From IMG/VR virus record IMGVR_UViG_3300029775_000166, positions 19,914-83,913 of that record: a DNA stretch of 64,000 nucleotides, one strand, 5' to 3'. Made by a program: the position numbers and the translations under genes. This DNA comes from a virus. Of the stretch, positions 1,328 through 49,623 are shown piece by piece (the stretch's first letter is position 1; the number at the start of each line of letters is the position of its first letter). Below the pieces are notes generated by a model that was given only the letters and a program-made list of their open reading frames with translations, had not been told where the DNA came from and did no database searches.

Positions 1328-1545
1328 TAAAAAGCAAAGAGATAAATAGAAATCCATTTGCTTTTATGTTTTGCAACTATTTATAGAAGTAGGCAAGAAC
1401 CCCCCTGTGAATTTAGACGTTGAAGTTTTAGAAATAATAAATTAATGATATTAAAAATTAGCACTTGTAGAGATAGTAGATTATGAGATCTATAAAGCAG
1501 GAATCCTACTATTTTATAATAGTGACTTAAACTGAAAGGCGGTGA

Positions 1546-4500
1546 GTGATTTTGATATTTAGATACGATAAAAATCATAAATTGAGACAGAATCAAATTT
1601 TCTTGGCTAATCCTCAAAAAGATTATATTGGTGTTCTGACAAGTGCTAAGAATATTAAAGTAACTTTATTTATGAATGATCTTAATACTGCTTCATTTCG
1701 AATTTATAAATTTGAAAATAATATAGAAAATAAGAATTATACCGAACTTGAAATAAAAAGATTAGTTGAAATTAGATATATTGGATGGTTTCAAATTTCT
1801 AATGTCAAAGAACATGATGACGGAATGTATTCATATAAAGATATTACATGTATAGCATTAGAGAACGAATTAACCGGTAAGCGTATAGATGATATTAAGG
1901 GTGTTTTTGCATTATATGATATTACCGACACTGAACATAGTTTATTACATATAATTACAAGACAGACTGATTGGAAAATTGGACATGTAGATAATGAGTT
2001 AGTCGAAAAATGGCGTACATTTTCAATAGACTCTAATAAAATATATAATTTTCTTGTACAGGATGTAAGCAAATCATTTAGTTGTTTATTTTTATTTGAT
2101 GTTTATGAAAAGACTATCAATGCTTATAAATTAAGTAATTATGGTGAATTAACAGATATCATTATTTCAAAAAAAAATATATTACAAGAATATATTAGAG
2201 AATCAAGTTTGGATAATATTATTACAAAACTTCGTGTAACAGGCGCAGATGGATTAGATATTCGTGCGGTAAATCCTACTGGTTCAAATTATATTATCAA
2301 CGTAAATTATTTTAAGAATACTGGTTGGATGTCACAAGGACTTGTAGATGCATTAGATAATTATGAAAATGCGCTTAATTCTATTGCAAAAACATATACT
2401 ACTACTCTCTCACTTTATAAACAACGGCAGAGCGAATTAACTGTATTAAATGCAGATTTAGAGACACTAAATGCAAATAAAAAAGCAAAGGAAAATGTTC
2501 AGGGTTCATATGTTCAATTATACAATGGCACTCCTCCTTCAACATCTAATGAGTATCAATTATACATAGAAGCAGTAAACGAATTAGCAGATACAAATAG
2601 ACAAATCGCAATTAAAAAAAAAGAAATTCTTAATAAGGAAAATCAAATTGATGACATTAGACAGCAATTAGATGACATCGGTACATCATTAGATCAATCT
2701 AAATATTTTACGAAAGCACATTTGACTGAACTTGAAGTATTTTTAACTGAGAATGATGAATATCAAGATTCAACTTTTATTGCCACAGATACTATGACAG
2801 CAGAAGAAATTATTGATATGAAGCTAGAGTTGTTAGAAAATGCTAAAGAAGAATTAAAAAGGGCAAGTCAACCTCAGTATACGGTAGAAATATTAGCAAG
2901 TAATTTGTATTCAATCATTGATGATGATACTAGAAAATTGTCTTATGACAAATGGAAAGAGCAACTTCAATTAGGAAATATAATAACAATTAAATTTGAA
3001 AAAGGGTATATTACAACTGCTAGGCTGATAAAGATTGAAATAGATTTTGATAATTTGGCTGATTTAAAACTTACATTTAGTGATAAGAGCAGATTTGATA
3101 ATGAACTTACTGAACTTGGTGAATTAATTGCGGATGCTGGAAGAACTTCTAATTCTATGTCATTATCTAAATTTGGATGGGATAAAGCATCTAAGTTAAC
3201 TTCTCCTGTTCAAGAATTTATAACTAGCACTTTAAATGCCACAGTTAATGCTATACAATCCAATGACAATCAAGATATGTATTTTGATACCTATGGTTTA
3301 CATATGCGCAAATGGTTACCAGATCAAAATAAATATGACGATAAACAAGCGTGGTGGACTAACAATATATTGTTATTCTCTGATGATGGTTTTAAGTCTG
3401 CTAAAACTGGTATAGGACAATTTACTACTGAAGCAGGTGAAACATTTTATGGATTTATAGGTGAAGCAATTATTAGTAACATTGTTGCATCTGAATCTTT
3501 AACTATAAAGAATGCCAATAATACATTTATTGTAGATAAAAATGGTGCTTTATTGATTGATGCTAATTTTACAATTACAAGAGGAAATAACAAAATAGTT
3601 CTCGATCCTATAGAAGGATTTAGTATTTATAATAAAAGTGATAAAGTTATATTCCTCGATTCCAATGGTGATGCAAATTTTAAAGGGCATATTACCGCTA
3701 GTAGTATTACATTAACAAATGCTATTGGTCTAACTATTAATAATGGTAATGGAACTTTTACAGTAAGTGCAGATGGTCATATTCACGCTGAATCCGGTGA
3801 TATTGCAGGATTTATTATGGATAATAATGTTTTGTGGGCAGGTAAAGATACTAAATATATTAGGATAAGTTCTGATCATACTTATATAAATGATCAATAT
3901 GGTGCTATTGACTTAGGACTTTCACCTGAAATAAATCCTAGTACTGGAATGAAAGATACCATTATACACCTTAGATCAGATGGATATGCACGTTTTGGAT
4001 TAAACGCACTAGATGGATCAGTTAAATTCAACTATAAAGATCAAGATTTTACCGGTAAGAATAAAACATTTACATTTTATACAAAAAACTTTAGAATAGC
4101 TAATGATGGATTGGTAACTTCAACTGGTATAAACTTGAAAAACGGTAGTCCAATACGTGGATATAGTACAAACGGTATTCCTCATAATTTAGTTAATTTT
4201 TCTCCCAATGATAATGTAGTTGTTGGACAGGAAAACGATCCTCAAAATACACATATTTATGGATTAGATGAACTTGCATTCTATATTGGATCAGATAATA
4301 ATAAAGCATTTATTATGAGTCCAGATAAATTTAGTTTTAAATTGCCTATAGAGCTAAATGGTAATTTAGATGTTGCAGGTGATTTAGGAGTTAAAGGTAA
4401 TGAAACTGTGTCTGGAAATTTAAGTGTAAGTGGGAAAACTACAACTAATACTCTATCATCTTCTGGTAATATTACAATGGGAGGTAATTTAGTAGCAACA

Positions 4501-5822: not shown

Positions 5823-6227
5823 ATGGCAGACATACACAAAGGAAGAGGATATGTGTATTCAATACAATATCATATAGTATGGTGTGTAAAATATAGACAT
5901 AAAGTAATTAATGGCGAAATAGAAAATAAATTAAAAGAAATAATATATAAAATAGCAGAAGATAATAATTTTATTATCGAAGAAATGGAAACTGATTTAG
6001 ACCACATACACTTATTAATAGAATGTAGTCCCCAACATTACATACCTAATATAATAAAAGCATTAAAAGGAGTGTCTGCTAGACTATTAATGAAGGAGTA
6101 TGGATGTGTATTAAAAAGGAAATTATGGGGAGGACATTTATGGAATCCTAGTTATTTTATCGCCACAGTAAGTGAAAATACAGAGGAACAAATAAGAAAT
6201 TATATTCAAAGTCAAAAAATCAAATAG
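5823..6227 (+). CDS. tnpA: IS200/IS605 Y1 HUH transposase
   Basis: YHIVWCVKYR, DHIH (HUH), LWNPSYF catalytic Tyr. Confidence 0.95.
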   Translation: MADIHKGRGYVYSIQYHIVWCVKYRHKVINGEIENKLKEIIYKIAEDNNFIIEEMETDLDHIHLLIECSPQHYIPNIIKALKGVSARLLMKEYGCVLKRKLWGGHLWNPSYFIATVSENTEEQIRNYIQSQKIK

Positions 6228-6247
6228 AAAGGTAGGTGAATTTATCT

Positions 6248-7393
6248 ATGAAAACTGTAATAAAAGGATATAAATATAGAATATATCCAACCAAAGAACA
6301 AGAAGTGCAATTAGCTAAAACTTTTGGTTCATGTAGATTTGTTTATAATCAAATATTAGCAAAGAAAATAGAATTATATAGAACAGATAAAAAATCTATA
6401 AGCAAAACAGATTGTAACAATTATTGTAATAGAGAATTAAAAAAGCAATATCTATGGCTCAAAGAAGTAGATAAATTTGCTTTAACTAATTCTATTTATG
6501 ATTTGGATAGAGCTTATCAAAATTTCTTTAGAGAAGTAAAAAAGGGTAATAAAAATCAAGGATTCCCCAAATTTAAGTCAAAGAAAAATCACTATTATTC
6601 TTATAAAACTAATTTTACAAATAACAATATTAAAGTAGATTTTGAGAATAATAGAGTTCAGCTACCTAAACTAAAATGGTTAAAAGCTAAACTTCATAGA
6701 CATTTTGATGGTAGAATATTGTTCGCTACAATAAGCAAAACTCCTAGTGGTAAATATTTTGTTAGTTTTAATGTAGAATGTGAACATAAGGAACTAAAAC
6801 AAAACAATAACTCATTAGGAATGGATTTAGGAATTAAAGATTTATTAATTACGTCAGATGGCGAAGTATTTGATAATAAAAAATTAACATATAAATATGA
6901 GTTAAAATTAGCTAAATTACAAAGACAGATTGCTAAAAAGAAGATAGGTAGTAACAAATGGAAGAAACAAAGAGTTAAAATTGCTAGAATATATGAAAAA
7001 ATAACCAATATTAGAAAAGATAATTTAAATAAGATTTCTCACCAAATAGTTAAGGAAAATCAACTTATATTTAGTGAAAATCTTAATATAAAAGGTATGG
7101 TTAAAAATCATAATTTAGCAAAATCTATTCATGATTGTAGTTGGTATGAATTAACAAGACAACTAGCTTATAAATCAGAATGGAATAATCGTATTTATCA
7201 TAAGGTTGATAGATATTATCCTTCAAGTCAATTATGTAATGTATGTGGATATAAAAATAAAGATACTAAAAATTTAGGTGTTAGATTTTGGATATGTCCT
7301 GAATGTCATACAAAACATGATAGAGATATAAATGCTAGTATAAATATTCTTAATCAAGGATTAAAGGATTTAGGATCAGATAAGGCAGTTTAA
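6248..7393 (+). CDS. tnpB: TnpB RNA-guided nuclease (copy 1), RuvC D-E-D intact
   Basis: GMDLG / FSENL / HDRDINA; CNVCG..CPEC zinc finger; ATG 6248 after RBS (alternative GTG 6236). Confidence 0.95.
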   Translation: MKTVIKGYKYRIYPTKEQEVQLAKTFGSCRFVYNQILAKKIELYRTDKKSISKTDCNNYCNRELKKQYLWLKEVDKFALTNSIYDLDRAYQNFFREVKKGNKNQGFPKFKSKKNHYYSYKTNFTNNNIKVDFENNRVQLPKLKWLKAKLHRHFDGRILFATISKTPSGKYFVSFNVECEHKELKQNNNSLGMDLGIKDLLITSDGEVFDNKKLTYKYELKLAKLQRQIAKKKIGSNKWKKQRVKIARIYEKITNIRKDNLNKISHQIVKENQLIFSENLNIKGMVKNHNLAKSIHDCSWYELTRQLAYKSEWNNRIYHKVDRYYPSSQLCNVCGYKNKDTKNLGVRFWICPECHTKHDRDINASINILNQGLKDLGSDKAV

Positions 7394-7394
7394 A

Positions 7395-7524
7395 TATATA
7401 AAAACAATAGGGTAGGAACTATCCAAATTAAGACGCCCATGGAGTTAGTAGGTTACGAGGACTATGAAGTGGGAAAATGATAGAGTAATCTTGAAGCACG
7501 CGACTTTAGTCGTGTGAGGTTCAC
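7395..7524 (+). ncRNA. omegaRNA scaffold/right end of TnpB1 element
   Basis: Post-tnpB region ending in CACGCGAC-TTTA-GTCGTGTG hairpin and GGTTCAC; 5' limit uncertain. Confidence 0.7.
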
Positions 7525-7991: not shown

Positions 7992-9095
7992 ATGTTGAAA
8001 GCATACAAATATAGACTTTATCCAAATAAAGAACAACAAGAATATTTTGCAAAAACTTTTGGATGTGTACGATTCATTTATAATCGTATGCTTTCTGATA
8101 AAATCGAGTATTACAAAGAAACAAAGCAGAAACTAAATAATACTCCCGCTCAATATAAGAAAGAATTTGAGTGGTTAAAAGAAGTAGATTCTCTTGCTTT
8201 AGCTAATGCTCAAATGAACTTACAAACGGCTTATAATAACTTTTTCAAAAGACCAGATGTAGGATTTCCAAAATTCAAAAGTAAGAAAAATAATCACTAT
8301 TCTTACACTACTAATAATCAAGGTGGTAATATTTATGTATCAGATAAATATATTAAATTACCAAAGATTGGATTAGTTAAAGTTAAGAAACATAGGGAAT
8401 TTGATGGACTTATAAAATCAGTAACTGTTTCTAAAGTACCAAGTGGTAAGTACTATGTGTCAGTATTAGTAAAACAAGAAGATATTGAAAAGTTACCAGA
8501 ATGCAGTAATACTCTAGGTATTGATTTGGGAATTAAAGAATTTGCAATTACTTCTAATGGAGAAATGATTGAGAACCCAAAGTTTCTAAGACAATCGGAA
8601 GATAGATTGAGAAAACTACAGAAAGATTTATCAAGAACTAAAAAAGGGAGTAAAAACCGAAACAAATGTAGAATTAAAGTCGCCAAGCAACATGAGAAGA
8701 TAGCAAATCAAAGAAAAGATTTCTTAAATAAGTTGTCGAAAAGGTTAATTAACGAAAATCAAGTAACTGCTTTAGAGACATTAAAAATAAAAAACATGAT
8801 GAAAAATCACAAACTTGCAAAATCTGTAGCCGATGTATCATGGTCAGAATTTGTACGACAACTAGAATATAAAGCTAATTGGTGTGGACGAGAAATTTTG
8901 CGAATTGACACTTGGTATCCTTCAAGTCAAATTTGTTCTTGTTGTGGACATAAGGATGGTAAGAAATCATTGTCAATTAGAGAATGGACTTGTTCAGAAT
9001 GTGGCACTCATCACGAAAGAGATATTAATGCAGCAATAAACATACTAAATGAAGGTTTGAGAAATAGAATCGTAGGAACTACGAGGATAGCTTAG
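7992..9095 (+). CDS. tnpB: TnpB RNA-guided nuclease (copy 2), RuvC D-E-D intact
   Basis: GIDLG / ALETL / HERDINA; zinc finger present. Confidence 0.95.
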
Positions 9096-9161
9096 GTAAA
9101 CTTGTCTCGTTAGAGATATTGACTAAGAAGCCGACAAGTCTTTAGCTTGGCGGTAGTTCAC
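9000..9161 (+). ncRNA. omegaRNA scaffold/right end of TnpB2 element
   Basis: Ends GAAGCCGACAAGTCTTTAGCTTGGCGGTAGTTCAC; near-identical copy at 42411-42571; 5' limit uncertain. Confidence 0.75.
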
Positions 9162-19577: not shown

Positions 19578-20459
19578 ATGAGCAAGTGCACAGCCAAAGA
19601 TTTAATTAAGGTTGCAGAAAAATACGTTGGATATCTAGAAAAAAAAAGTAATAAGCAGTTAGATAGTTTGACTGATAATGCCGGCAAAGGCAATTATACT
19701 CGTTTTGCTAGAGAATATTATAATTTTGCAGGAGTTAATTTACAAGGTCAAGCGTGGTGCGATATGTTCGTGGATACCTGCTTTGTTGAAGCTTTTGGTA
19801 CTAAAAAAGCAAAAGAGTTATTAGGTGGATTTAGTGCATACACTCCTACATCTGCATTGTATTATCAAAAAATGAATAGATGGTATGCCTCTAATCCTAA
19901 AGTTGGCGATCAAATATTCTTTAAAAGTTCCACTAGAATAAATCATACTGGTATCGTTTATAAAGTAACATCTTCCACTGTCTATACCATTGAAGGGAAT
20001 ACTTCTGGTGGTAAAGATGTTGTTGCTAATGGCGGTGGAGTATTTGAGAAAGAATACAGTCTTAAAAACTCTAGGATTGCTGGCTATGGTAGACCTAATT
20101 ATGATAAAGAAGAAAAACCTAAGAATGACGAAAAGGCAGAAAAACCAGATACAAAATTAGTATACGATTATTACACTGTCAAGCCTGGAGATACATTATC
20201 TAAAATTGCCCGTAAATATAATACCACAGTAGACAAACTGGTTAAGCTAAATAATATTAAGAATGCCAATGTAATTAACATAGGTCAGAAGCTGAAGGTT
20301 AGTACATATAGTGTATACAAAGTGGTTAAAGGCGACAGTTTAAGTAAAATTGCTAAAAACTTATTAGGTAATGCAAATAGATATAAAGAGATTATGGAGT
20401 ACAATAGACTAAAAAGTACGGTAATTCATGTGGGGGATGAATTAAAGATTCCTATGTAA
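19578..20459 (+). CDS. Endolysin, CHAP domain plus two LysM
   Basis: AWCDMFV..HTGIV..TIEGNT CHAP; [13 protein letters not shown] and [13 protein letters not shown] LysM. Confidence 0.9.
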
Positions 20460-35767: not shown

Positions 35768-37029
35768 TTATACCACTAAGCTATCCACCATCCATGTTTT
35801 TCTTGCTGATATTCGTTTGCAGTTACTTAATTTTGGTGTTTTCCATCCTTTAGGCATACTTGAGAAGTCTACCTTATTTCCTTCTATATCCATAAGTATT
35901 GCATATCCAGAACTCATTCTGCCTTTGATAAAATACTCTTTTCCCAAATATCTCACCTTATCAAATTTCCTAAACCCTTGTATTTTACCTGTCGGTATTG
36001 CTTGTTGACTTCTAACACCTTTTGTCTGTTGAAAATCACCATTTGGAATACACTTCTTTCTATAAAGTATATTTTGCCTAATAGTAAATTTGTTTCCACC
36101 ACTAGCAATAATACAAGCATCTAGGTGATGTTTCTTATCTACTCTTAGCAACAATCTATTGGCTTTTGTGATGTACCCAAATGTTTCTATCGCATCTGAA
36201 CATAGCTTTAACAACTGTAATCTTATACTGTTCATTTGTGTTGCATGTTTTAATTGCCCTTTTCTTTTGCCTAGCAGTTTTAATTTTATACTTTTACTAT
36301 GAACACATTTATGACAAGTGTGACAAAGCGTTATAAGATTATCTTCTTCGTCAGAACCACCGTTACTACGATAAATAATATGATGGACTTCTAATTTAGA
36401 ATCCTTCCTTCTGCCTTTACAGTGTTGGCAAATATAATTGTCACGATTTAATACCTTTGCTTTGGTATTCTCAAATCCATAATTACCACCTTGTTGATAG
36501 CCCCATTTTTTATATATAGGATTATGTAGACTTGAATTTTTAAGTAGATGTGGGTCAAACGTTGCTGTTTCCATAACTAATCTGCTTATTGGTAAAATAC
36601 TCTTAATAAACTCTATTTCTTTCATATGGGAGTCTAGCTTACTTCTCATAGTAGGAGAAAATCTGTCTTTTTTAATGGAGTTTTTACGGTTCAACCATCT
36701 AGCTTTTCTGTATCTTGTTTTTCTATTACGTCTGTTTCTACGATATTTTACACGTTGTGACATCTTATCAGCAATGTCATTTCTTATTTCTACATCTGAC
36801 ATATATAAAACTTCATTTTTAGAATTAATAACAGATGTTCCTACATGACTACTTCCAGTATCTACACCTAATGTACAATCTTGAACATACTCTGTTGTAT
36901 CGTATAATAATTTAATGGTAAACGGTGTTTTTCTTTTTACTTTTGCTTTTTTTGTTTTAATAATAATCTTGCTACCACATTTTCACATGGCATAAGTGGT
37001 TTATTATCTTTAGAAATTACATAAACTAT
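35768..37029 (-). pseudogene. iscB: IscB, frameshifted (-1) in an A7 tract near the N-terminus
   Basis: PLMP, GVDTG, R-rich bridge helix, VMETATFD, HNH (VHHI..DNLITLC..CH), HHLDA; frame break at 36947-36953; ATA start after GGAGGAG. Confidence 0.88.
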
Positions 37030-37039
37030 AATTAGCTCC

Positions 37040-37319
37040 TCCTAATAAATACTCTGCTAAAAGCAGGTGGTATGTACTTTGTCTTACTATTACCATAAGA
37101 TTTTTCCAACTTCAACTCGACAATGATAATATAGCTTACATGTATATATCACAGGGCTTTTCTTATTCCAACCCAACTTAAATATATACGATAGAGCAGT
37201 GGTCTGTTGCGTCAACCAAAGGTATCATAACTATACTATCGTAGCTATTGTTTCTAATAGCTTAGTCTGGTGAACTATTTAATGGAAGCCACGAAGTCTT
37301 TAGCTTCGTGGTAGTTCAC
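37040..37319 (-). ncRNA. IscB omegaRNA (HEARO-like)
   Basis: GTGAACTACC hairpin..GTTCACCAGACTAAG..CTACGAT..GACGCAACAGACC..CATTGTCGAG motifs upstream of iscB. Confidence 0.85.
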
Positions 37320-37384
37320 ATGGTTCACATATATCCTTCTTTCTGAATAATTATCCTCTTTATATATTATTATTACATTAGACA

Positions 37385-39185: not shown

Positions 39186-39431
39186 TCATTTAGAATTTAT
39201 ACTTTTTAGCTTGTTAATTACATAGTCATAACTAAAATGAGGTATTGTACAATTTGAGCAATCCTTTATCCCGTTGGAGAGAACACTATAGTTCCCTCCG
39301 CAATCGGAATATTGATAAAGAGGACAGTAACATAACATACAGTTAAAGTCTTTTTCTTTGCCTTTTGGTACTTTATGACATGGGAAATATCCACATTTTA
39401 TGTTTTGAAAAAATTTATAATTATCACTCAT
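39186..39431 (-). CDS. Cysteine-rich small domain protein
   Basis: C.YFPCH..FNC..CYCPLY..CGGN..KDCSNC.IPH; TAATG-coupled to nrdJ stop. Confidence 0.8.
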   Translation of the reverse strand: MSDNYKFFQNIKCGYFPCHKVPKGKEKDFNCMLCYCPLYQYSDCGGNYSVLSNGIKDCSNCTIPHFSYDYVINKLKSINSK

Positions 39432-40906
39432 TATTCGCAACGACTCCAAGAACAAGATTTACAAAAGCTGCATCCACCTTCAAATACTAATTCTTCACCG
39501 CATTGAGGGCATGGATTGTTAATTTTTTTGTTGTTTAACTGATTAATTTCTTTGTTACTTATTTGTTTGATATTTTTTCCGTCCTCAAAGTCAGCGTCAA
39601 TATCTTTTTGTATTTCTTTATACATATTAATTAGTGCTTTGCCAATAGCTACAGGACAACAACTTCCCTTAGATGTATCTTTTTTAGTTGCAGTTCTAAC
39701 AGCGTAAGACGGGCAATTACCACAACTATTTAACTGATCTGCTATTGTATAAACGTCAACTCCCGCTCTAGCTGACAATGATATCATTCGAGATAGTCCA
39801 ATCATAAAATTGTTACATCCACCAGAAGATCCTTTACTAAAATATGTTTCCAATAATGCGCCAGTATCTGGATCAAAAAATGCTGTACAGTGTAGTGTTC
39901 CACATCCAGTAGTAAGCGTACGTTTTTTACCAATTACGTTATCATCTGCTTCAATAATGTATCCTCTAGGAAGTTCTGTTTTCTTATCTTCACTTTTATT
40001 ATCTTCTTTTTTGTCAGTTGATGTAGTTAATATTCCTAATCTCTTGCAACCATCCCTAAATATAGTAACACCTTTTAATCCATTTTCCCAAGCTTGTAAA
40101 TATAAATCTTCTGTATCTTCTATGGTAAAAGAATTTGGAACGTTAACTGTAGATGATATTGACGCATCAATATGTTCCTGCCAAATTGCTTGCATCCTAA
40201 TTCTTTCTTTATAATTTAAATTTTGTGCTGTAATAAAATAATCTGGTAATTGTTCATCATCTGATATATTATTTTCTGCCATAAATCGTTCGACAACTGG
40301 GGTATAAACTTTATATACTTCGTCATGACCATGGAGTGACTGAGTTCTTCTTTCATAATAATTTGCAAATATGGGTTCAATGCCACCGCTAACGCCTAAC
40401 ATACTAGATAAACTACCTGTAGGAGCAATAGTCAGCAGCTGAGAATTATTTAGTCCATATTGATTTACAAATGACTTAGTTTCATCTGACGTATTATACT
40501 CATAGAATTCAGACTTAAGTGTATTTTCTTTATTGTATTTAGGGAATATTCCTTTCTCTTTTGCTAATTTACTTGACGTTAGAATTGCTTCATTAATCAT
40601 TTCAGATCCAATCATGTCACAGAGATTAATAGATTCATAACTACCATATCTAATCCCCATTTTAATTAGCATATCAGCTAATCCAAATATACCTAATCCA
40701 ATTTGCCTCCAATTCCTAACTGATTCCCTCTGTTCTTGTAGCGGATGCAATCCTAATCCTTCATCCAAAACTTCGTTTAAAGCTCTAACAGCAATTGAAA
40801 CGGTTTTGGAAAAATCCGCATAATCAAATGATTTATCTTCCTTAACAAATTCAGAAAGATTGATACTACCAAGTAAACACGAACCTCCGGCTGGCAGTGG
40901 TTCTTC
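39431..40906 (-). CDS. nrdJ: Class II (B12-dependent) ribonucleotide reductase, exon 2
   Basis: EEPLP..GSCLLGSINL, TIAPTGS, TSCPD-like domain, terminal Zn ribbon. Confidence 0.9.
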   Translation of the reverse strand, partial: EEPLPAGGSCLLGSINLSEFVKEDKSFDYADFSKTVSIAVRALNEVLDEGLGLHPLQEQRESVRNWRQIGLGIFGLADMLIKMGIRYGSYESINLCDMIGSEMINEAILTSSKLAKEKGIFPKYNKENTLKSEFYEYNTSDETKSFVNQYGLNNSQLLTIAPTGSLSSMLGVSGGIEPIFANYYERRTQSLHGHDEVYKVYTPVVERFMAENNISDDEQLPDYFITAQNLNYKERIRMQAIWQEHIDASISSTVNVPNSFTIEDTEDLYLQAWENGLKGVTIFRDGCKRLGILTTSTDKKEDNKSEDKKTELPRGYIIEADDNVIGKKRTLTTGCGTLHCTAFFDPDTGALLETYFSKGSSGGCNNFMIGLSRMISLSARAGVDVYTIADQLNSCGNCPSYAVRTATKKDTSKGSCCPVAIGKALINMYKEIQKDIDADFEDGKNIKQISNKEINQLNNKKINNPCPQCGEELVFEGGCSFCKSCSWSRCE

Positions 40907-41222
40907 CAATAGTGTTATCGTAAAGGTTTTTTATCCTTTACTTCTGGAGGTTTCCCTCATACTCAATACCAGCAATGTTGAGATACGTCTGTTAATTCAG
41001 ACCAGTTCAGCATATATTTTCTTTGATAATCTAATCTTTTAAAGAAATTTATATTGATTATATTGTCAAAGTTCCGTACTCTTGGATGGATTATTGCTCT
41101 CTTGTTGCTCACCATCTATGCGTTACAAACCCCTATGATGTAGTGGGTTCTCGGTATTACCGTATTTTTCAACTTAGGCTTCACCGATTTTACGAAATTT
41201 TTTACATGAGCCTAGTATGTCA
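40907..41222 (-). other. Group I intron (316 nt, no ORF)
   Basis: 5'SS after U with P1 AUGUGCU/GGCUCAU U.G pair; P7 GCAUA/UAUGC; terminal G; splicing restores NPCA-EEP. Confidence 0.88.
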
Positions 41223-42017
41223 AGCACATGGATTAACACCAGCATATTCAAAGTCAGAATATTCACTTAGTAAATTCCATCCTTTAATTCTGTCCCAAAA
41301 TAACATTCCTGGTTCTGCATAATCCCAATTCATTTGACTTAATTTATTAAAAATTTTATATGCGTCTATTTCCTTTGTTATTGTTTCTTTATTTTCTAAA
41401 TTTGTAAAACTAAGGGTAAACATTTCTTTGTTTTTAACGGCTTCCATAAAATCGTTTGTGATTTTTATAGATATATTTGCTTTTGTAACTCTATTTAAAT
41501 CTGACTTTACTTCAATAAATTCCTCTAAGTCTGGATGAGTGCAATCTATTGAAATCATTAAAGCCCCCCTACGTCCGTTTTGGCTTATCGTACCTGTAAT
41601 ATCAGAATATAAATCCATAAAAGAAACTGCACCACTTGAATGTTCTGCGGCATTATTTACTTTTGCATTGTTAGGTCTAAGTTTACTAATATCAATACCG
41701 CAACCACCGCCATATGAAAATGTCCTTGCTAACTTGCTGGCACAGTCAAAGATTGATTCAATATTGTCATCAGGAGGAGCAATTACATAACAATTACTTA
41801 GTGTAACTTTTTTACCTAATTTATCCAATCCTCTATTAGATAAAATCCTTCCACCAAATAAAAACTTTTTATTTATAATTAACTCTCGCAATTCTTTATT
41901 ATTATTTGATACTCTATCTAACCATTCATCAAATGTTTCGTTGTTATAACGATACTTTTTCTCCCAAATATCAATTCCAAGCTGATTATTTTTGCCAAGC
42001 CATTCTTCTACTTCCAT
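41223..42017 (-). CDS. nrdJ: Class II ribonucleotide reductase, exon 1
   Basis: FLFGGRIL, SNCYV, GGGCGIDIS.LRP, RRGALM, AEPG, NPCA. Confidence 0.9.
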
Positions 42018-42410
42018 ACTTTTATCCTTTCTTCTTATGTTATTTAATATCTATATCATCCTACGATGTAGGATTATATTTTATTTATACATTAGGTCTA
42101 TCCTTATAAGGCTTACTATCATTGCAATCCTATATATTGCATTTATTCCGCAATTGCATTCCCATTTTCATCTAATCTCGTGTAGCCGCCACCAAATGTA
42201 CCGCCATTACTTTCGATAAACTCGATAAATTTAGTCCAAAATTCGTCAAATGACTTTTCAGGTGGTAATTCAATAACTCCGTTCACTTGATGCTCATTCC
42301 TCATTTAATTACCTACTTTTTAATTGTCAATTTACTCAAAATTTGCTTCTATAAATTTCTTTATATCTTCATAATCATATCCGCCATAATCATCAATGTC
42401 TGTTTCTAAT

Positions 42411-42571
42411 GTGAACTACCGCCAAGCTAAAGACTTGTCGGCTTCTTAGTCAATATCGCCATTGCGACAAGTTTACCTAAGCTATCCTCGTAGTTCCTAC
42501 GATTCTATTTCTCAAACCTTCATTTAGTATGTTTATTGCTGCATTTATATCTCTTTCATGATGAGTGCCAC
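42411..42571 (-). mobile_element. TnpB2-type 3' remnant with complete right end/omegaRNA
   Basis: 7 mismatches in 161 nt versus 9001-9161. Confidence 0.9.
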
Positions 42572-42857
42572 ATTTCTTACAAGTCCATACTGCGCCTTTT
42601 TGTTTACCGGCAACACTATAATCCTGACATGGACTCCCTCCAACAATCATATTAAATGGCTCTAATTTTGTTTCATCTACCTTTGTGATATCGCCTAAAT
42701 TTATGCTTTTATTAAAAAGCTGCAACCCTATGAAACAATGGTATTACAGAGGAGGAAAATACTTGAAATGCTATAAACTAGTTAATTTTTGTGAATTTGA
42801 CAAATACGCTATCGATAGTTACTGTGCTATACATAATGTGAATAAAAGCATAAATTT
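42477..42857 (-). pseudogene. Cytosine-5 methyltransferase remnant, partly inverted and fused to TnpB tail
   Basis: GDITKVD..GGSPCQD on minus; YKLVNFCEFDKYA..IHN on plus inside the inverted segment; motif I absent. Confidence 0.8.
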
Positions 42858-42864
42858 TACCATA

Positions 42865-43440
42865 TCATCTCCATTTATATTCATCTATTTCCTTAATACA
42901 ATCTCTATAGTATTGAGTAGAATACGCATTTCCATCTTCTGTGTGCTTTAAATCATTACAATATAGACATCTATATTTACTTACTTCATGTTCAGCTTCT
43001 TCTTCTGATAACTCAATTACCATCTCTTTTGTATACAGTTTTCCACAATCGCAACAATACCTTATATCTTCGTATTCTAATCCAAGTTGTTCTTTCAAAA
43101 CTTTTGCAAGTTCATCTAATATTAAATGATTTTCAATTAACATTTCTGCTAGTTCACCATCAAATAAATCAGAATCATACCATTCTAATGTTTTACGATA
43201 ATTAAATAATTCCTTGTTATTTGTAATAATACACGCCTTACCAAATGCTGCATACCAACCACCAGTTCCAGTATTAGTTGGAATACCTTCTTCTGCAAAT
43301 GTATCAATACTCAAGTATTCATTAATTCTTATAAGTTGGTTTCTAAGTTCCTTTAAAAAATCATATGTAATTAATTGTCTAATGTTTTCTGGTATTTGAT
43401 ATTCGAAATGAACGCAATTACCATCATCTACTATTGGCAT
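42865..43440 (-). CDS. Hypothetical protein with CxxC pairs
   Basis: RBS, co-oriented. Confidence 0.5.
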   Translation of the reverse strand: MPIVDDGNCVHFEYQIPENIRQLITYDFLKELRNQLIRINEYLSIDTFAEEGIPTNTGTGGWYAAFGKACIITNNKELFNYRKTLEWYDSDLFDGELAEMLIENHLILDELAKVLKEQLGLEYEDIRYCCDCGKLYTKEMVIELSEEEAEHEVSKYRCLYCNDLKHTEDGNAYSTQYYRDCIKEIDEYKWR

Positions 43441-43735
43441 ATCAATTTCCCTTCCATATATTTTTGTTAAATAACTAATTTACTTCTTTTATTATCTGAT
43501 TTCTATTTTTCTTGTATTAATGTTTTTTCATCCACATACCAAATTGCTAACTTATTTAAGTCTAGCAATCCTAAGAATCGCATATCCTTATTAAATACTC
43601 TCCATCCATGCTTTTTACACTTTTTGTCAGTTTCTAATACAGCACTATACTCATGTTCATATTCTATTAAGTCTCCATTTTCTTCTTTCATTCTTCATTC
43701 TCCTATGCTAATATAAAAACATTATTTAATTTACA

Positions 43736-43996
43736 TTATTCTATTGATCTGCTATTCTTTCTCTTTCTTAATATTCTTTTTACTTTCTTAACTAAATCTC
43801 CAACTGCAAGTCCCCATACATAACAAATCGTCAACATGCCTATTCCTGCACTTATCTTTTGGCTAATAGACACTGTATTGTTTAGGAATATTGGACAGTT
43901 ACATATAAGTATTATACCTATGCCTGAAATAACTAAAATCAAACCCAATATTTCTATAATCCACCAATCTAATCCGATTTTTCTCAAATTATGCAC
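43736..43996 (-). CDS. Two-TM small membrane protein
   Basis: Hydrophobic segments. Confidence 0.5.
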   Translation of the reverse strand: MHNLRKIGLDWWIIEILGLILVISGIGIILICNCPIFLNNTVSISQKISAGIGMLTICYVWGLAVGDLVKKVKRILRKRKNSRSIE

Positions 43997-44062
43997 CTTT
44001 CTTTTTTAATGAAAATCTTAATTCATCTTTTCTTTACAAGCTTGAATATTTATTCTTATATG

Positions 44063-44482
44063 CTACTTCACACTTCTTTTATCTTTTTCTTCATAAACAT
44101 AAAGTTCTTCCTTTGGATGTGGTTTCTGCAAATAACTCTCATTAATTCTAACTTCCTGACCATAATAACCACTCCAATTACCTTTACCGGAAACGTATAG
44201 ATTTCCATCTTTCTCAATACGTCTTATTTGATAAGCAGGTTTGTCACAACCTTGCCAATGTGAAATAATAAAGCAATTATCTTTAGTTATATCTTCTTGT
44301 TCCTTTGTGAGTTCCCATTTAAAGCCACATAAGTAATTAATTGTGCTTAACGAATGGCGATTGTCCAATAAAGCGTTTGCATAATTATATCTTGCATGTT
44401 TGTATTCACACTCCAAAGCATCAACATTATTATCATATGTATGTTCACAGATATCACATTTGTAAGCTGTTATCTCTTTCAT
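44063..44482 (-). CDS. Hypothetical phage protein
   Basis: YKCDIC..Y..A.ECE; SHWQG. Confidence 0.5.
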   Translation of the reverse strand: MKEITAYKCDICEHTYDNNVDALECEYKHARYNYANALLDNRHSLSTINYLCGFKWELTKEQEDITKDNCFIISHWQGCDKPAYQIRRIEKDGNLYVSGKGNWSGYYGQEVRINESYLQKPHPKEELYVYEEKDKRSVK

Positions 44483-44519
44483 TTAATCACTCCTTTCACA
44501 ATTGTATCAAGCTATAATT

Positions 44520-48363: not shown

Positions 48364-49623
48364 TTAGATTAAGTTAACCCTAATTGGATGACAACCTACA
48401 CCCTCTATCCCATCTTCAAATGAATTTGGGAATGCTTTGACCATAATTTGATATGATCCATTTACATCTGCATTAATTTCAGTTCCGCTATTACTTATGA
48501 AGAGACCACGATATTTCCTCCTTTCCTTGTCATAATTTTCTTTTACAGGTGTTTCTCTATCTAAAAAGCTTGTTCCACTTGTATAAGACTCATTTGTTGT
48601 CTTAAAAATAATTCCTACGTTTTCACATTTATATGTAAGTTTGTCAACCAAGGTTTTATATGGTATTTGTATAAACTTCTGATTGCTAACCTTACCCATG
48701 TTTGATTCTTGTTTCCAACCCTGATTATATCCACAAACTAGTGTATCAATATTATTATCTAAACAATAATCAACTATCATCTTGGTAGCCTTATGTATAT
48801 AATCACAAACCTTATTATTTCTCTTAGTTGTTAACCTTTGAAGTTTATTACTCCAGTCTTTATCATTTTTAGTCTTTAACATTGATTTTTGTTTAGCTAG
48901 TTCTTTATTGTAATATTGATTAATTGATTTTAAAGGTCTTCCGTTAATAATAAGTGGTTGTAATCCACAATTGTTTGTAATTGTTAATAAATTATCTACA
49001 CCTAAATCTATTGATGCTATTCTTTCTGTGTCGCTACATATGTCTGGAACTTCTATTTCATAAATAATTTCCATTATGTAATCATCGCCTTTTGGCACAA
49101 ACCTACATTGTATTAACTTAGAGTCACTTGAAATTTTTGTATAATATGTATTGTTTAATATTTTTAATGGTGTCCATGAAAAATAAATACAAGCATCAAC
49201 TATTCTAAATTTTATATTGTCAATATCCAATTCATATCTTCCATCTTTAGGTAAGTATGTAGGTATTCTTGGCATCCCCTTATATTTGTTGGGATTTTTA
49301 TTCCAATCTTTAATAGATTTAAAATATGATACCCAATTTTGATTTAATTTTCTTAATGTTGCTTGACCTACATTACTCCCCATATCTTTATATGGCTCAC
49401 TGCCTTTCACTAGTTTAAATAATTCATTGTATTGTATCCAGTTTGCATTTTCTCGTAATCCTTGTTGTTTTTCTTTTGATGTAATTATAAATTCTTGTCT
49501 AATTATATAATTGCCATAGTTATATACATTCTTTGATTTAAAACATAAACTATCTATCAATTTCCAATTTTTATTATTTTTCCTTATTCTGTGCTGTTCT
49601 ACTCTATTTACTTTCATTAACAT
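48364..49623 (-). CDS. tnpB: Solo TnpB (copy 3), atypical RuvC-II, no zinc finger
   Basis: SIDLGVDN; VCGYNQGWKQE; ESYTS; INADVNG; no tnpA or TTCAC end nearby. Confidence 0.85.
   Translation of the reverse strand: MLMKVNRVEQHRIRKNNKNWKLIDSLCFKSKNVYNYGNYIIRQEFIITSKEKQQGLRENANWIQYNELFKLVKGSEPYKDMGSNVGQATLRKLNQNWVSYFKSIKDWNKNPNKYKGMPRIPTYLPKDGRYELDIDNIKFRIVDACIYFSWTPLKILNNTYYTKISSDSKLIQCRFVPKGDDYIMEIIYEIEVPDICSDTERIASIDLGVDNLLTITNNCGLQPLIINGRPLKSINQYYNKELAKQKSMLKTKNDKDWSNKLQRLTTKRNNKVCDYIHKATKMIVDYCLDNNIDTLVCGYNQGWKQESNMGKVSNQKFIQIPYKTLVDKLTYKCENVGIIFKTTNESYTSGTSFLDRETPVKENYDKERRKYRGLFISNSGTEINADVNGSYQIMVKAFPNSFEDGIEGVGCHPIRVNLI

Follow-up and report, generated by a model that had tools for sequence, protein, structure and literature searches.

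The omegaRNA (reRNA) of ISDra2 (PDB 8H1J, 8EXA, 8BF8; PMC10097598) and the omegaRNA scaffold of the TnpB2 family considered here both overlap the 3′ end of tnpB, end at the right end of the element and have the adjoining flank in the position of the guide. Their layouts also appear alike, with a stem 1 and a pseudoknot to positions −5 to −3, a nested stem 3 and a terminal stem (PMC10097598), whereas the TAM is TTTAA here and TTGAT in ISDra2, and the scaffold sequences are unrelated. In ISDra2, a 116-nt scaffold suffices, stem 3b, on the distal side (−70 to −49), lacks an ordered structure and tolerates deletion, and the −5 to −3 pseudoknot forms with about −104, beside stem 1 (PMC10097598). 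TnpB releases omegaRNA from transcripts that are longer than it (PMC10278001). OmegaRNAs of the standalone kind, described by Altae-Tran et al. (2021) and summarized in PMC10691335, have neither effector nor transposase beside them, occur in genomes with a compatible effector and have been shown to work in trans; the same source calls them "evidently mobilized" and states their biological role as unknown. Scaffold leftovers that lack tnpB are common and already described.

Here we describe such an orphan scaffold in a phage genome. Like the standalone omegaRNAs of PMC10691335, it consists of a full scaffold and a flank in guide position, with no adjacent tnpB or transposase and an effector elsewhere in the genome; unlike them, it is the one-off scar of an internal deletion, present as a single copy and without a left end. 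It also differs from the ISDra2 omegaRNA in being separated from its gene. PATEs, of which the TnpB2 family has comparable miniature forms, are likewise derived from IS200/IS605 elements and carry no genes while still having the omegaRNA and the right end, but they retain both ends and are mobilizable, whereas the orphan has a right end only. Truncated IS remnants (solo ends produced by illegitimate recombination) share with the orphan a microhomology junction, the loss of one end and a location in a pseudogene patch; in contrast to these, what survives here is a functional RNA module in its entirety, and the same genome encodes a protein that could use it. Our preferred reading, to which we assign a probability of roughly two in three, is that the orphan is a deletion scar in which the right end of a second IS200/IS605 element of the TnpB2 family persists as a fossil, and is most likely neutral.

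A complete scaffold separated from its tnpB

The sequence studied, called the window throughout, is a 64,000-nt stretch (GC 29%) of IMG/VR virus record IMGVR_UViG_3300029775_000166, positions 19,914 to 83,913. The whole record is 109 kb long, with an estimated completeness of 72%. The transposon-related genes of the window are as follows.

5823-7393: IS605 unit with tnpA and tnpB1
7992-9161, plus strand: candidate partner, tnpB2 (7992-9095, 367 aa, Pfam), carrying an omegaRNA scaffold of its own (9050-9161) and, as its flank, TATAACAAATAGAAAG
35768-37319, minus strand: IscB gene with HEARO omegaRNA
48364-49623: third tnpB in the window

The tnpB1 element ends on its right side (..GGTTCAC) at 7524/7525, where it adjoins what remains of the 3′ part of a tnpA (VDKDHIHMM..) that belongs to the tnpB2 element; neither the 5′ part of this tnpA nor a left end for the tnpB2 element was found in the window. 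The IscB omegaRNA lies in 37105-37321 (Rfam HEARO, 102.5 bits, minus strand), and its start is the reverse complement of a right-end hairpin of the TnpB2 family (..GCCACGAAGTCTTTAGCTTCGTGGTAGTTCAC on the plus strand, with 37319 as its last base). Since the IscB omegaRNA opens with this hairpin, the IscB and TnpB elements have one common end type. A related contig, L180, has 3.9 kb of additional genes exactly at 37319|37320, and the guide-side flank of IscB is therefore not the same among sibling phages.

Beyond 20.6 kb, nearly all window genes are on the minus strand. The orphan, co-oriented with the surrounding early genes, sits between a 191-aa ORF (42865-43440) and a 53-aa ORF, after which comes a split ribonucleotide reductase gene. 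The large subunit of this enzyme (39431-42017, minus strand) is encoded by two ORFs that match Pfam barrel positions 1-203 and 225-522; the spacer between them is ~310 nt and holds no Rfam intron at the gathering score, and a sibling, L178, has a 7-nt deletion in this region, at 41911-41917. The 191-aa protein has no relatives in IMG/VR, and megablast of 41000-44500 against cultured phages matched nothing. The parts of the orphan locus are these.

42391-42410, minus strand: ATTAGAAACAGACATTGATG, the flank that adjoins the right end on its 3′ side and occupies the guide position
42411-42522, minus strand: complete TnpB2-family omegaRNA scaffold, comprising stem A (GGAAC loop), a nested stem 3-like helix, the terminal right-end hairpin and the GTTCAC end
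42411-42567, minus strand: unambiguous tnpB/IS-derived DNA (157 nt, from alignments)
42454-42469, minus strand: hairpin TGTCGC-AATG-GCGATA, −59 to −44 from the guide
42477-42479, minus strand: tnpB stop codon
42480-42567, minus strand: last TnpB residues

An earlier first-pass annotation had described the locus as a 161-nt copy of the tnpB2 3′ end with 7 mismatches, and the alignment agrees: 42411-42571 (minus strand) aligns without gaps to 9001-9161, that is, to the tnpB2 3′ end and the scaffold as far as the right end GTTCAC, with mismatches at −148, −136, −55, −53, −52, −50 and −48 from the guide junction. In a blastn comparison of the region with the window, this was the single strong repeat (42399-42591 against 9174-8981, 92% over 194 nt), and the match is well above chance (E 4e-76). 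The similarity reported by blastn extends to 42599, but 42575-42599 is methylase-derived and is explained by shared zinc-ribbon codons (see below). The 109-kb record contains one orphan copy only.

To judge completeness, 162 relatives of TnpB2 were found in IMG/VR, of which 80 loci were kept, and a covariance model (CM R1) was derived from 28 family members, leaving out the orphan, L005 and L048. CM R1 matched the orphan over all of its 112 positions (1-112) with 122.4 bits (E 4e-28), as compared with 127.3 bits for TnpB2's own scaffold. Since this full-length score resembles those of bona fide members, the orphan is a complete, undecayed scaffold, and the claim of an omegaRNA without its own tnpB holds: there is no overlapping full-length tnpB, only ~30 last TnpB codons fused to a fragment of a methylase gene. 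The right end is likewise intact, as had been claimed. Wherever family loci reach that point, similarity ends after GTTCAC (in two loci, GTTCAG), and the flanks beyond show no relation to one another; more than 40 loci pass from this junction into unique sequence, and the orphan, with a new flank in guide position, does so at the same base. Because its divergence from all family members begins exactly after GTTCAC, no part of the right end has been lost.

The orphan is not simply a diverged copy of the tnpB2 end. Over the 161 nt, it has no differences outside the hairpin from L007, a family locus whose TnpB is 93% identical to TnpB2, as compared with two differences there from TnpB2 itself. 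This identity to L007 argues that the orphan is the end of a separate sister element.

Deletion within a methylase gene

The 5′ edge of the orphan is a deletion junction, and no left-end motif was found upstream. The features on this side are the following.

42477-42725, minus strand: 82-aa chimeric ORF in which a C5-methylase motif IV fragment is joined in frame to the TnpB C terminus (Pfam)
42568-42574, minus strand: 7-nt crossover AATGTGG, inside the 20-nt patch TGGACTTGT...AATGTGG
42568-42587, minus strand: recombination junction, from a three-way alignment of the orphan, the L024 Dcm methylase and the L007/TnpB2 tnpB
42714-42840: inverted segment of 127 bp between perfect 17-bp inverted repeats (42697-42713 and 42841-42857)

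In the chimera, PF00145 is matched by residues 7-45 and PF07282 (TnpB TNB domain) by residues 35-66. An intact methylase homologue occurs in another phage (L024/L192) and is 81.6% identical in amino acids over the orphan-side piece and 75% identical in nucleotides up to the junction. This Dcm is circularly permuted, with motif I at the C terminus and a zinc ribbon right after motif IV (GKQKGSVWTCKECGHEY). The 20-nt patch is common to the zinc-ribbon codons of the methylase and the zinc-finger codons of tnpB (WTCxxCG): the orphan tracks the methylase to AAGAAA (KK) and tnpB from CACTCAT on, and AATGTGG is found in both. Since the switch from methylase to tnpB falls at this shared patch, the orphan was created by illegitimate recombination, and the fusion is in frame because two zinc-ribbon coding stretches were joined.

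The 127-bp inversion moves the methylase N terminus (..KLVNFCEFDKYAIDSYCAIHNV) to the plus strand, whereas the corresponding pieces of L024 are colinear. Flipping the segment restores colinearity with the L024 homologue; a sibling, L181, has the same orientation as the window. In L192, the methylase (1501-3093) has motif I, FSGIGAFE, at its C terminus and a CxxC..CxxC zinc ribbon inserted after motif IV, and a TnpB lies immediately upstream of it, with short tandem repeats after the GTTCAG right end of that TnpB.

The following course of events would account for the locus. An ancestral element, resembling L007 and having the distal hairpin of the L048 type, would have inserted next to ATTAGAAACAGAC in the direction of the early genes and, by the family rule, 3′ of a TTTAA TAM. 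Later illegitimate recombination between the zinc ribbon of an upstream permuted C5-methylase (WTCK(K/E)CG) and that of tnpB (WTCSECG) removed what was left of the methylase, any intervening DNA, tnpA, the left end and some 320 codons of tnpB. The 157-164 nt that survived hold the end of the TnpB coding sequence, the omegaRNA scaffold in full and the right end. Lacking a left end, the orphan can neither transpose nor be excised. It lies in a decaying methylase patch that contains the 127-bp inversion and in which sister phages differ by a 2.9-kb indel.

The same orphan, hairpin and junction are present in four other independent assemblies (L178, L179, L180 and L181), and the orphan is therefore not an assembly artefact. 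The repeat does break short-read assemblies, and three of the four (L178, L179 and L180) terminate within the orphan or at its edge, as would be expected if the junctions were chimeras formed at a repeated sequence of a metagenome contig. However, L181 spans the region with identical junctions, three more assemblies agree on the junction between right end and flank, and a 7-nt crossover is too short for a k-mer chimera, leaving such an origin scarcely credible.

Overall, the siblings are 99.8-99.9% identical; the matched blocks of L180 and L181 are 99.6-99.9% identical to the window, and over 2.7 kb L178 departs from it at 2 substitutions and a single 7-nt indel. All of them have an identical orphan despite kilobase-scale indels elsewhere, an identity that carries little weight because the siblings are nearly identical overall; the set proves that the structure is real and is too shallow to measure selection. 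L181 contains 2.9 kb more than the window between the 191-aa gene and the methylase remnant (L181:9038-11940 against window 42834-42858), with four ORFs, one of which encodes a 382-aa N6/N4 DNA methylase. The deletion in the window relative to L181 has an AAAAT microhomology, and the site is a hotspot of methylase turnover.

The siblings also bear on the idea that the orphan and the tnpB2 3′ end serve as a switch, in which recombination between them inverts 33 kb and swaps the guides behind the intact tnpB. They lie 33 kb from each other in inverted orientation, as repeats of 190 bp that include identical stretches of 80 and 47 nt, and small inversions do occur in this genome (42697-42857). 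However, all five assemblies that cover the orphan have the same arrangement and none is an inverted isomer, and an inversion of this size would reorient the structural and early modules. We consider guide switching very improbable.

The variable hairpin

Five of the seven differences from TnpB2, and all five differences from L007, are confined to the hairpin at 42454-42469. Here TGTCTC-GTTA-GAGATA has become TGTCGC-AATG-GCGATA, changing one T-A pair to G-C together with three loop bases. The swap is thus where the first-pass annotation had placed it. When the family is considered, however, the compensatory change is no evidence of selection on the orphan. The same G-C stem is found in L048 (TGTCGC-AATT-GCGATA), a locus that is linked to a TnpB, and other members have GCG/CGC, TCC/GGA, TAC/GTA and further stem variants. 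In a consensus of 33 family 3′ ends, made up of stem A (6 bp, its GGAAC loop conserved), an outer stem of 5 bp that encloses the 6-bp hairpin discussed here, and the terminal right-end stem, compensatory changes occur in 16 of the 24 pairs. The family has UA (15), CG (9), AU (6) and GC (2) at pair 180:187, and the G-C of the orphan is among these four types. Since L048 shares the G-C stem and the stem covaries family-wide, the covariation is a property of the family. The minimum free energy fold of the orphan is the same as those of TnpB2, L007 and L048.

That five differences from L007 fall within 8 of 161 nt has a simulated chance of about 1e-5; a single patch event or an inherited variant therefore fits better than stepwise compensation in place. 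More generally, covariation between two copies may reflect inherited family variation instead of selection on the orphan, and caution is needed when only two copies are compared.

By position, the variable hairpin (−59 to −44) would correspond to the distal stem 3/3b of ISDra2, and the GAA of the stem A loop could pair with TTC at −5 to −3 in the manner of the ISDra2 pseudoknot; both assignments are analogies. As ISDra2 stem 3b, in the same place, is dispensable, TnpB2 should tolerate the altered hairpin.

Candidate guide, candidate partner and other tnpB-less scaffolds

Could the orphan nevertheless be used? The first-pass annotation had proposed that read-through of the early operon makes an omegaRNA that loads TnpB2 in trans and targets related phages. 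In such a model, the orphan would be a working standalone omegaRNA processed from the read-through RNA, and the resulting RNP would cut co-infecting relatives at TTTAA followed by ATTAGAAACAGACATT, thereby excluding them or converting them by homologous repair. Several of the necessary parts are at hand. TnpB2 is intact: its 367 aa include three Pfam domains, and the D-E-D motifs of RuvC are present as GIDLG, ALETL and HERD. It is a close homologue of ISDra2 TnpB (E 3.5e-90 in a PDB search), and the genome thus encodes an apparently active, compatible effector. Between the scaffold of TnpB2 and that of the orphan there are 5 nt of difference, in the distal hairpin. The orphan is complete, retains the GAA and TTC that could form the pseudoknot, and at 161 nt is longer than the 116 nt that are enough for ISDra2 (PMC10097598). 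A scan for consensus promoters gave a level equal to that of shuffled sequence. No terminator was found on the minus strand near the orphan; read-through probably produces an RNA from it, which TnpB2 could bind.

Since TnpB is known to process longer transcripts (PMC10278001) and standalone omegaRNAs to act in trans (PMC10691335), the mechanism is feasible and is not new in kind, and a multi-guide defense can thus not be called a new principle. The phage G001, in which a full TnpB and a truncated copy are 15 kb apart, is a further point in favor.

The search for targets gave no support. The 20-mer in guide position is unique within the window, and the flank continues as 25 open codons beyond the right end (LETDIDDYGGYDYEDIKKFIEANFE*). 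No homologue of this peptide was found at RNR-homologue loci or by tblastn against cultured phages; in particular, the 41 loci around ribonucleotide reductase homologues are without a homologue of the flank peptide, the 53-aa ORF or the 191-aa protein. The flank DNA pattern had no match in IMG/VR. The interrupted phage gene suggested by the first-pass annotation therefore stays putative. We considered whether the flank might be the C terminus of the methylase itself and ruled this out, because the L192 homologue ends in ...FSGIGAFEIALDRLYKGINSGNFISPQVD, which is unrelated.

Left-end flanks end in TTTAA at at least 10 independent family insertions, and the predicted target is therefore TTTAA-ATTAGAAACAGACATT. 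The guide 18-mer has 3 chance matches in IMG/VR, with no TAM and no similarity past 18-21 nt, and the 20-mer has 2 chance matches in GTDB species genomes (a Domibacillus antiporter gene and a coiled-coil gene of a Clostridia MAG), neither with a TAM. The flank 26-mer immediately past the guide was found in JGI/ENA metagenome contigs only in two sibling phages, both of which already carry the orphan, and there was no near match to the guide in the phage's own 109 kb or in sibling-specific DNA.

Thus, TTTAA plus the protospacer, or an unoccupied allele, was absent from IMG/VR, JGI/ENA metagenome contigs, GTDB genomes and cultured phages when searched with exact words, which diverged targets may escape. 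The proposal that related phages with the intact gene are targeted found no intact allele and no TAM-flanked protospacer in these databases, which may simply miss rival phages bearing the empty site.

Besides the missing target, the argument from covariation fails for the orphan copy, the orphan arose by accidental deletion within a pseudogene patch, and equivalent orphans occur without a cognate TnpB. Use of the orphan by TnpB2 as a second guide, and with it the working trans-acting omegaRNA as proposed, is in our view feasible but unlikely.

The evidence on equivalent orphans comes from a scan of IMG/VR with a 17-nt scaffold motif, which gave 49 loci, ~38 of them with assessable upstream DNA. 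A full tnpB is missing at 12-13 of these ~38 copies (about a third, from about 10 distinct loci). Three are PATE-like miniature elements with a left end 216-316 nt upstream of the right end (L136, L147 and L171), and several are truncations anchored at the right end.

In L160 (G001:C1:52463-52639), TnpB residues ~305-367 are fused in frame to an unrelated ORF, and the full family TnpB of the G001 provirus (G001:C1:67979-69079) is the copy 15 kb away; this pairing is an independent parallel to the present locus. The pairs L139/L166 and L142/L167 are minimal 99-nt scaffold modules at two intergenic sites of one phage contig (e.g., IMGVR_UViG_3300025713_000650). The modules are 99-100% identical, have different flanks, are preceded by TTTAA or ATTAA, and show no tnpB remnant and no recognizable left end.

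L161 (G003) is an orphan in a 98%-complete phage without a family TnpB and has the lowest model score, 65.7 bits. In a comparison of left-end-only with right-end-only remnants, aimed at biased retention of the omegaRNA, left-end hits were few (13 sites). Effector-less scaffolds are thus a frequent by-product of the TnpB2 family, with or without a partner.

Observations that count against a neutral scar include the undecayed scaffold, the terminator-free, co-oriented operon, and the presence of an apparently active, closely matching TnpB2 in the same genome. Even so, a neutral deletion scar, presumably without a selected function, is the reading we prefer. A more speculative possibility, which we hold to be quite doubtful, is that this phage group accumulates effector-less scaffolds (scars, PATE-like miniature elements and the 99-nt modules that occur twice in one contig), and that a resident TnpB uses them as a dispersed multi-guide set, cutting the unoccupied sites of rivals during co-infection and dragging linked alleles in.

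The main value of the locus at present is as a clean, datable case of a standalone omegaRNA that arose without transposition, through a deletion at microhomology between zinc-ribbon codons. If the orphan were used, the phage would offer a natural example of a TnpB that has two guides, of which one is immovable, and this would bear on how single-guide OMEGA nucleases move towards multi-guide systems. A dispersed multi-guide set, if true, would amount to a forerunner of the guide repertoires of CRISPR, derived from transposons and without an array, at work in the competition between phages.
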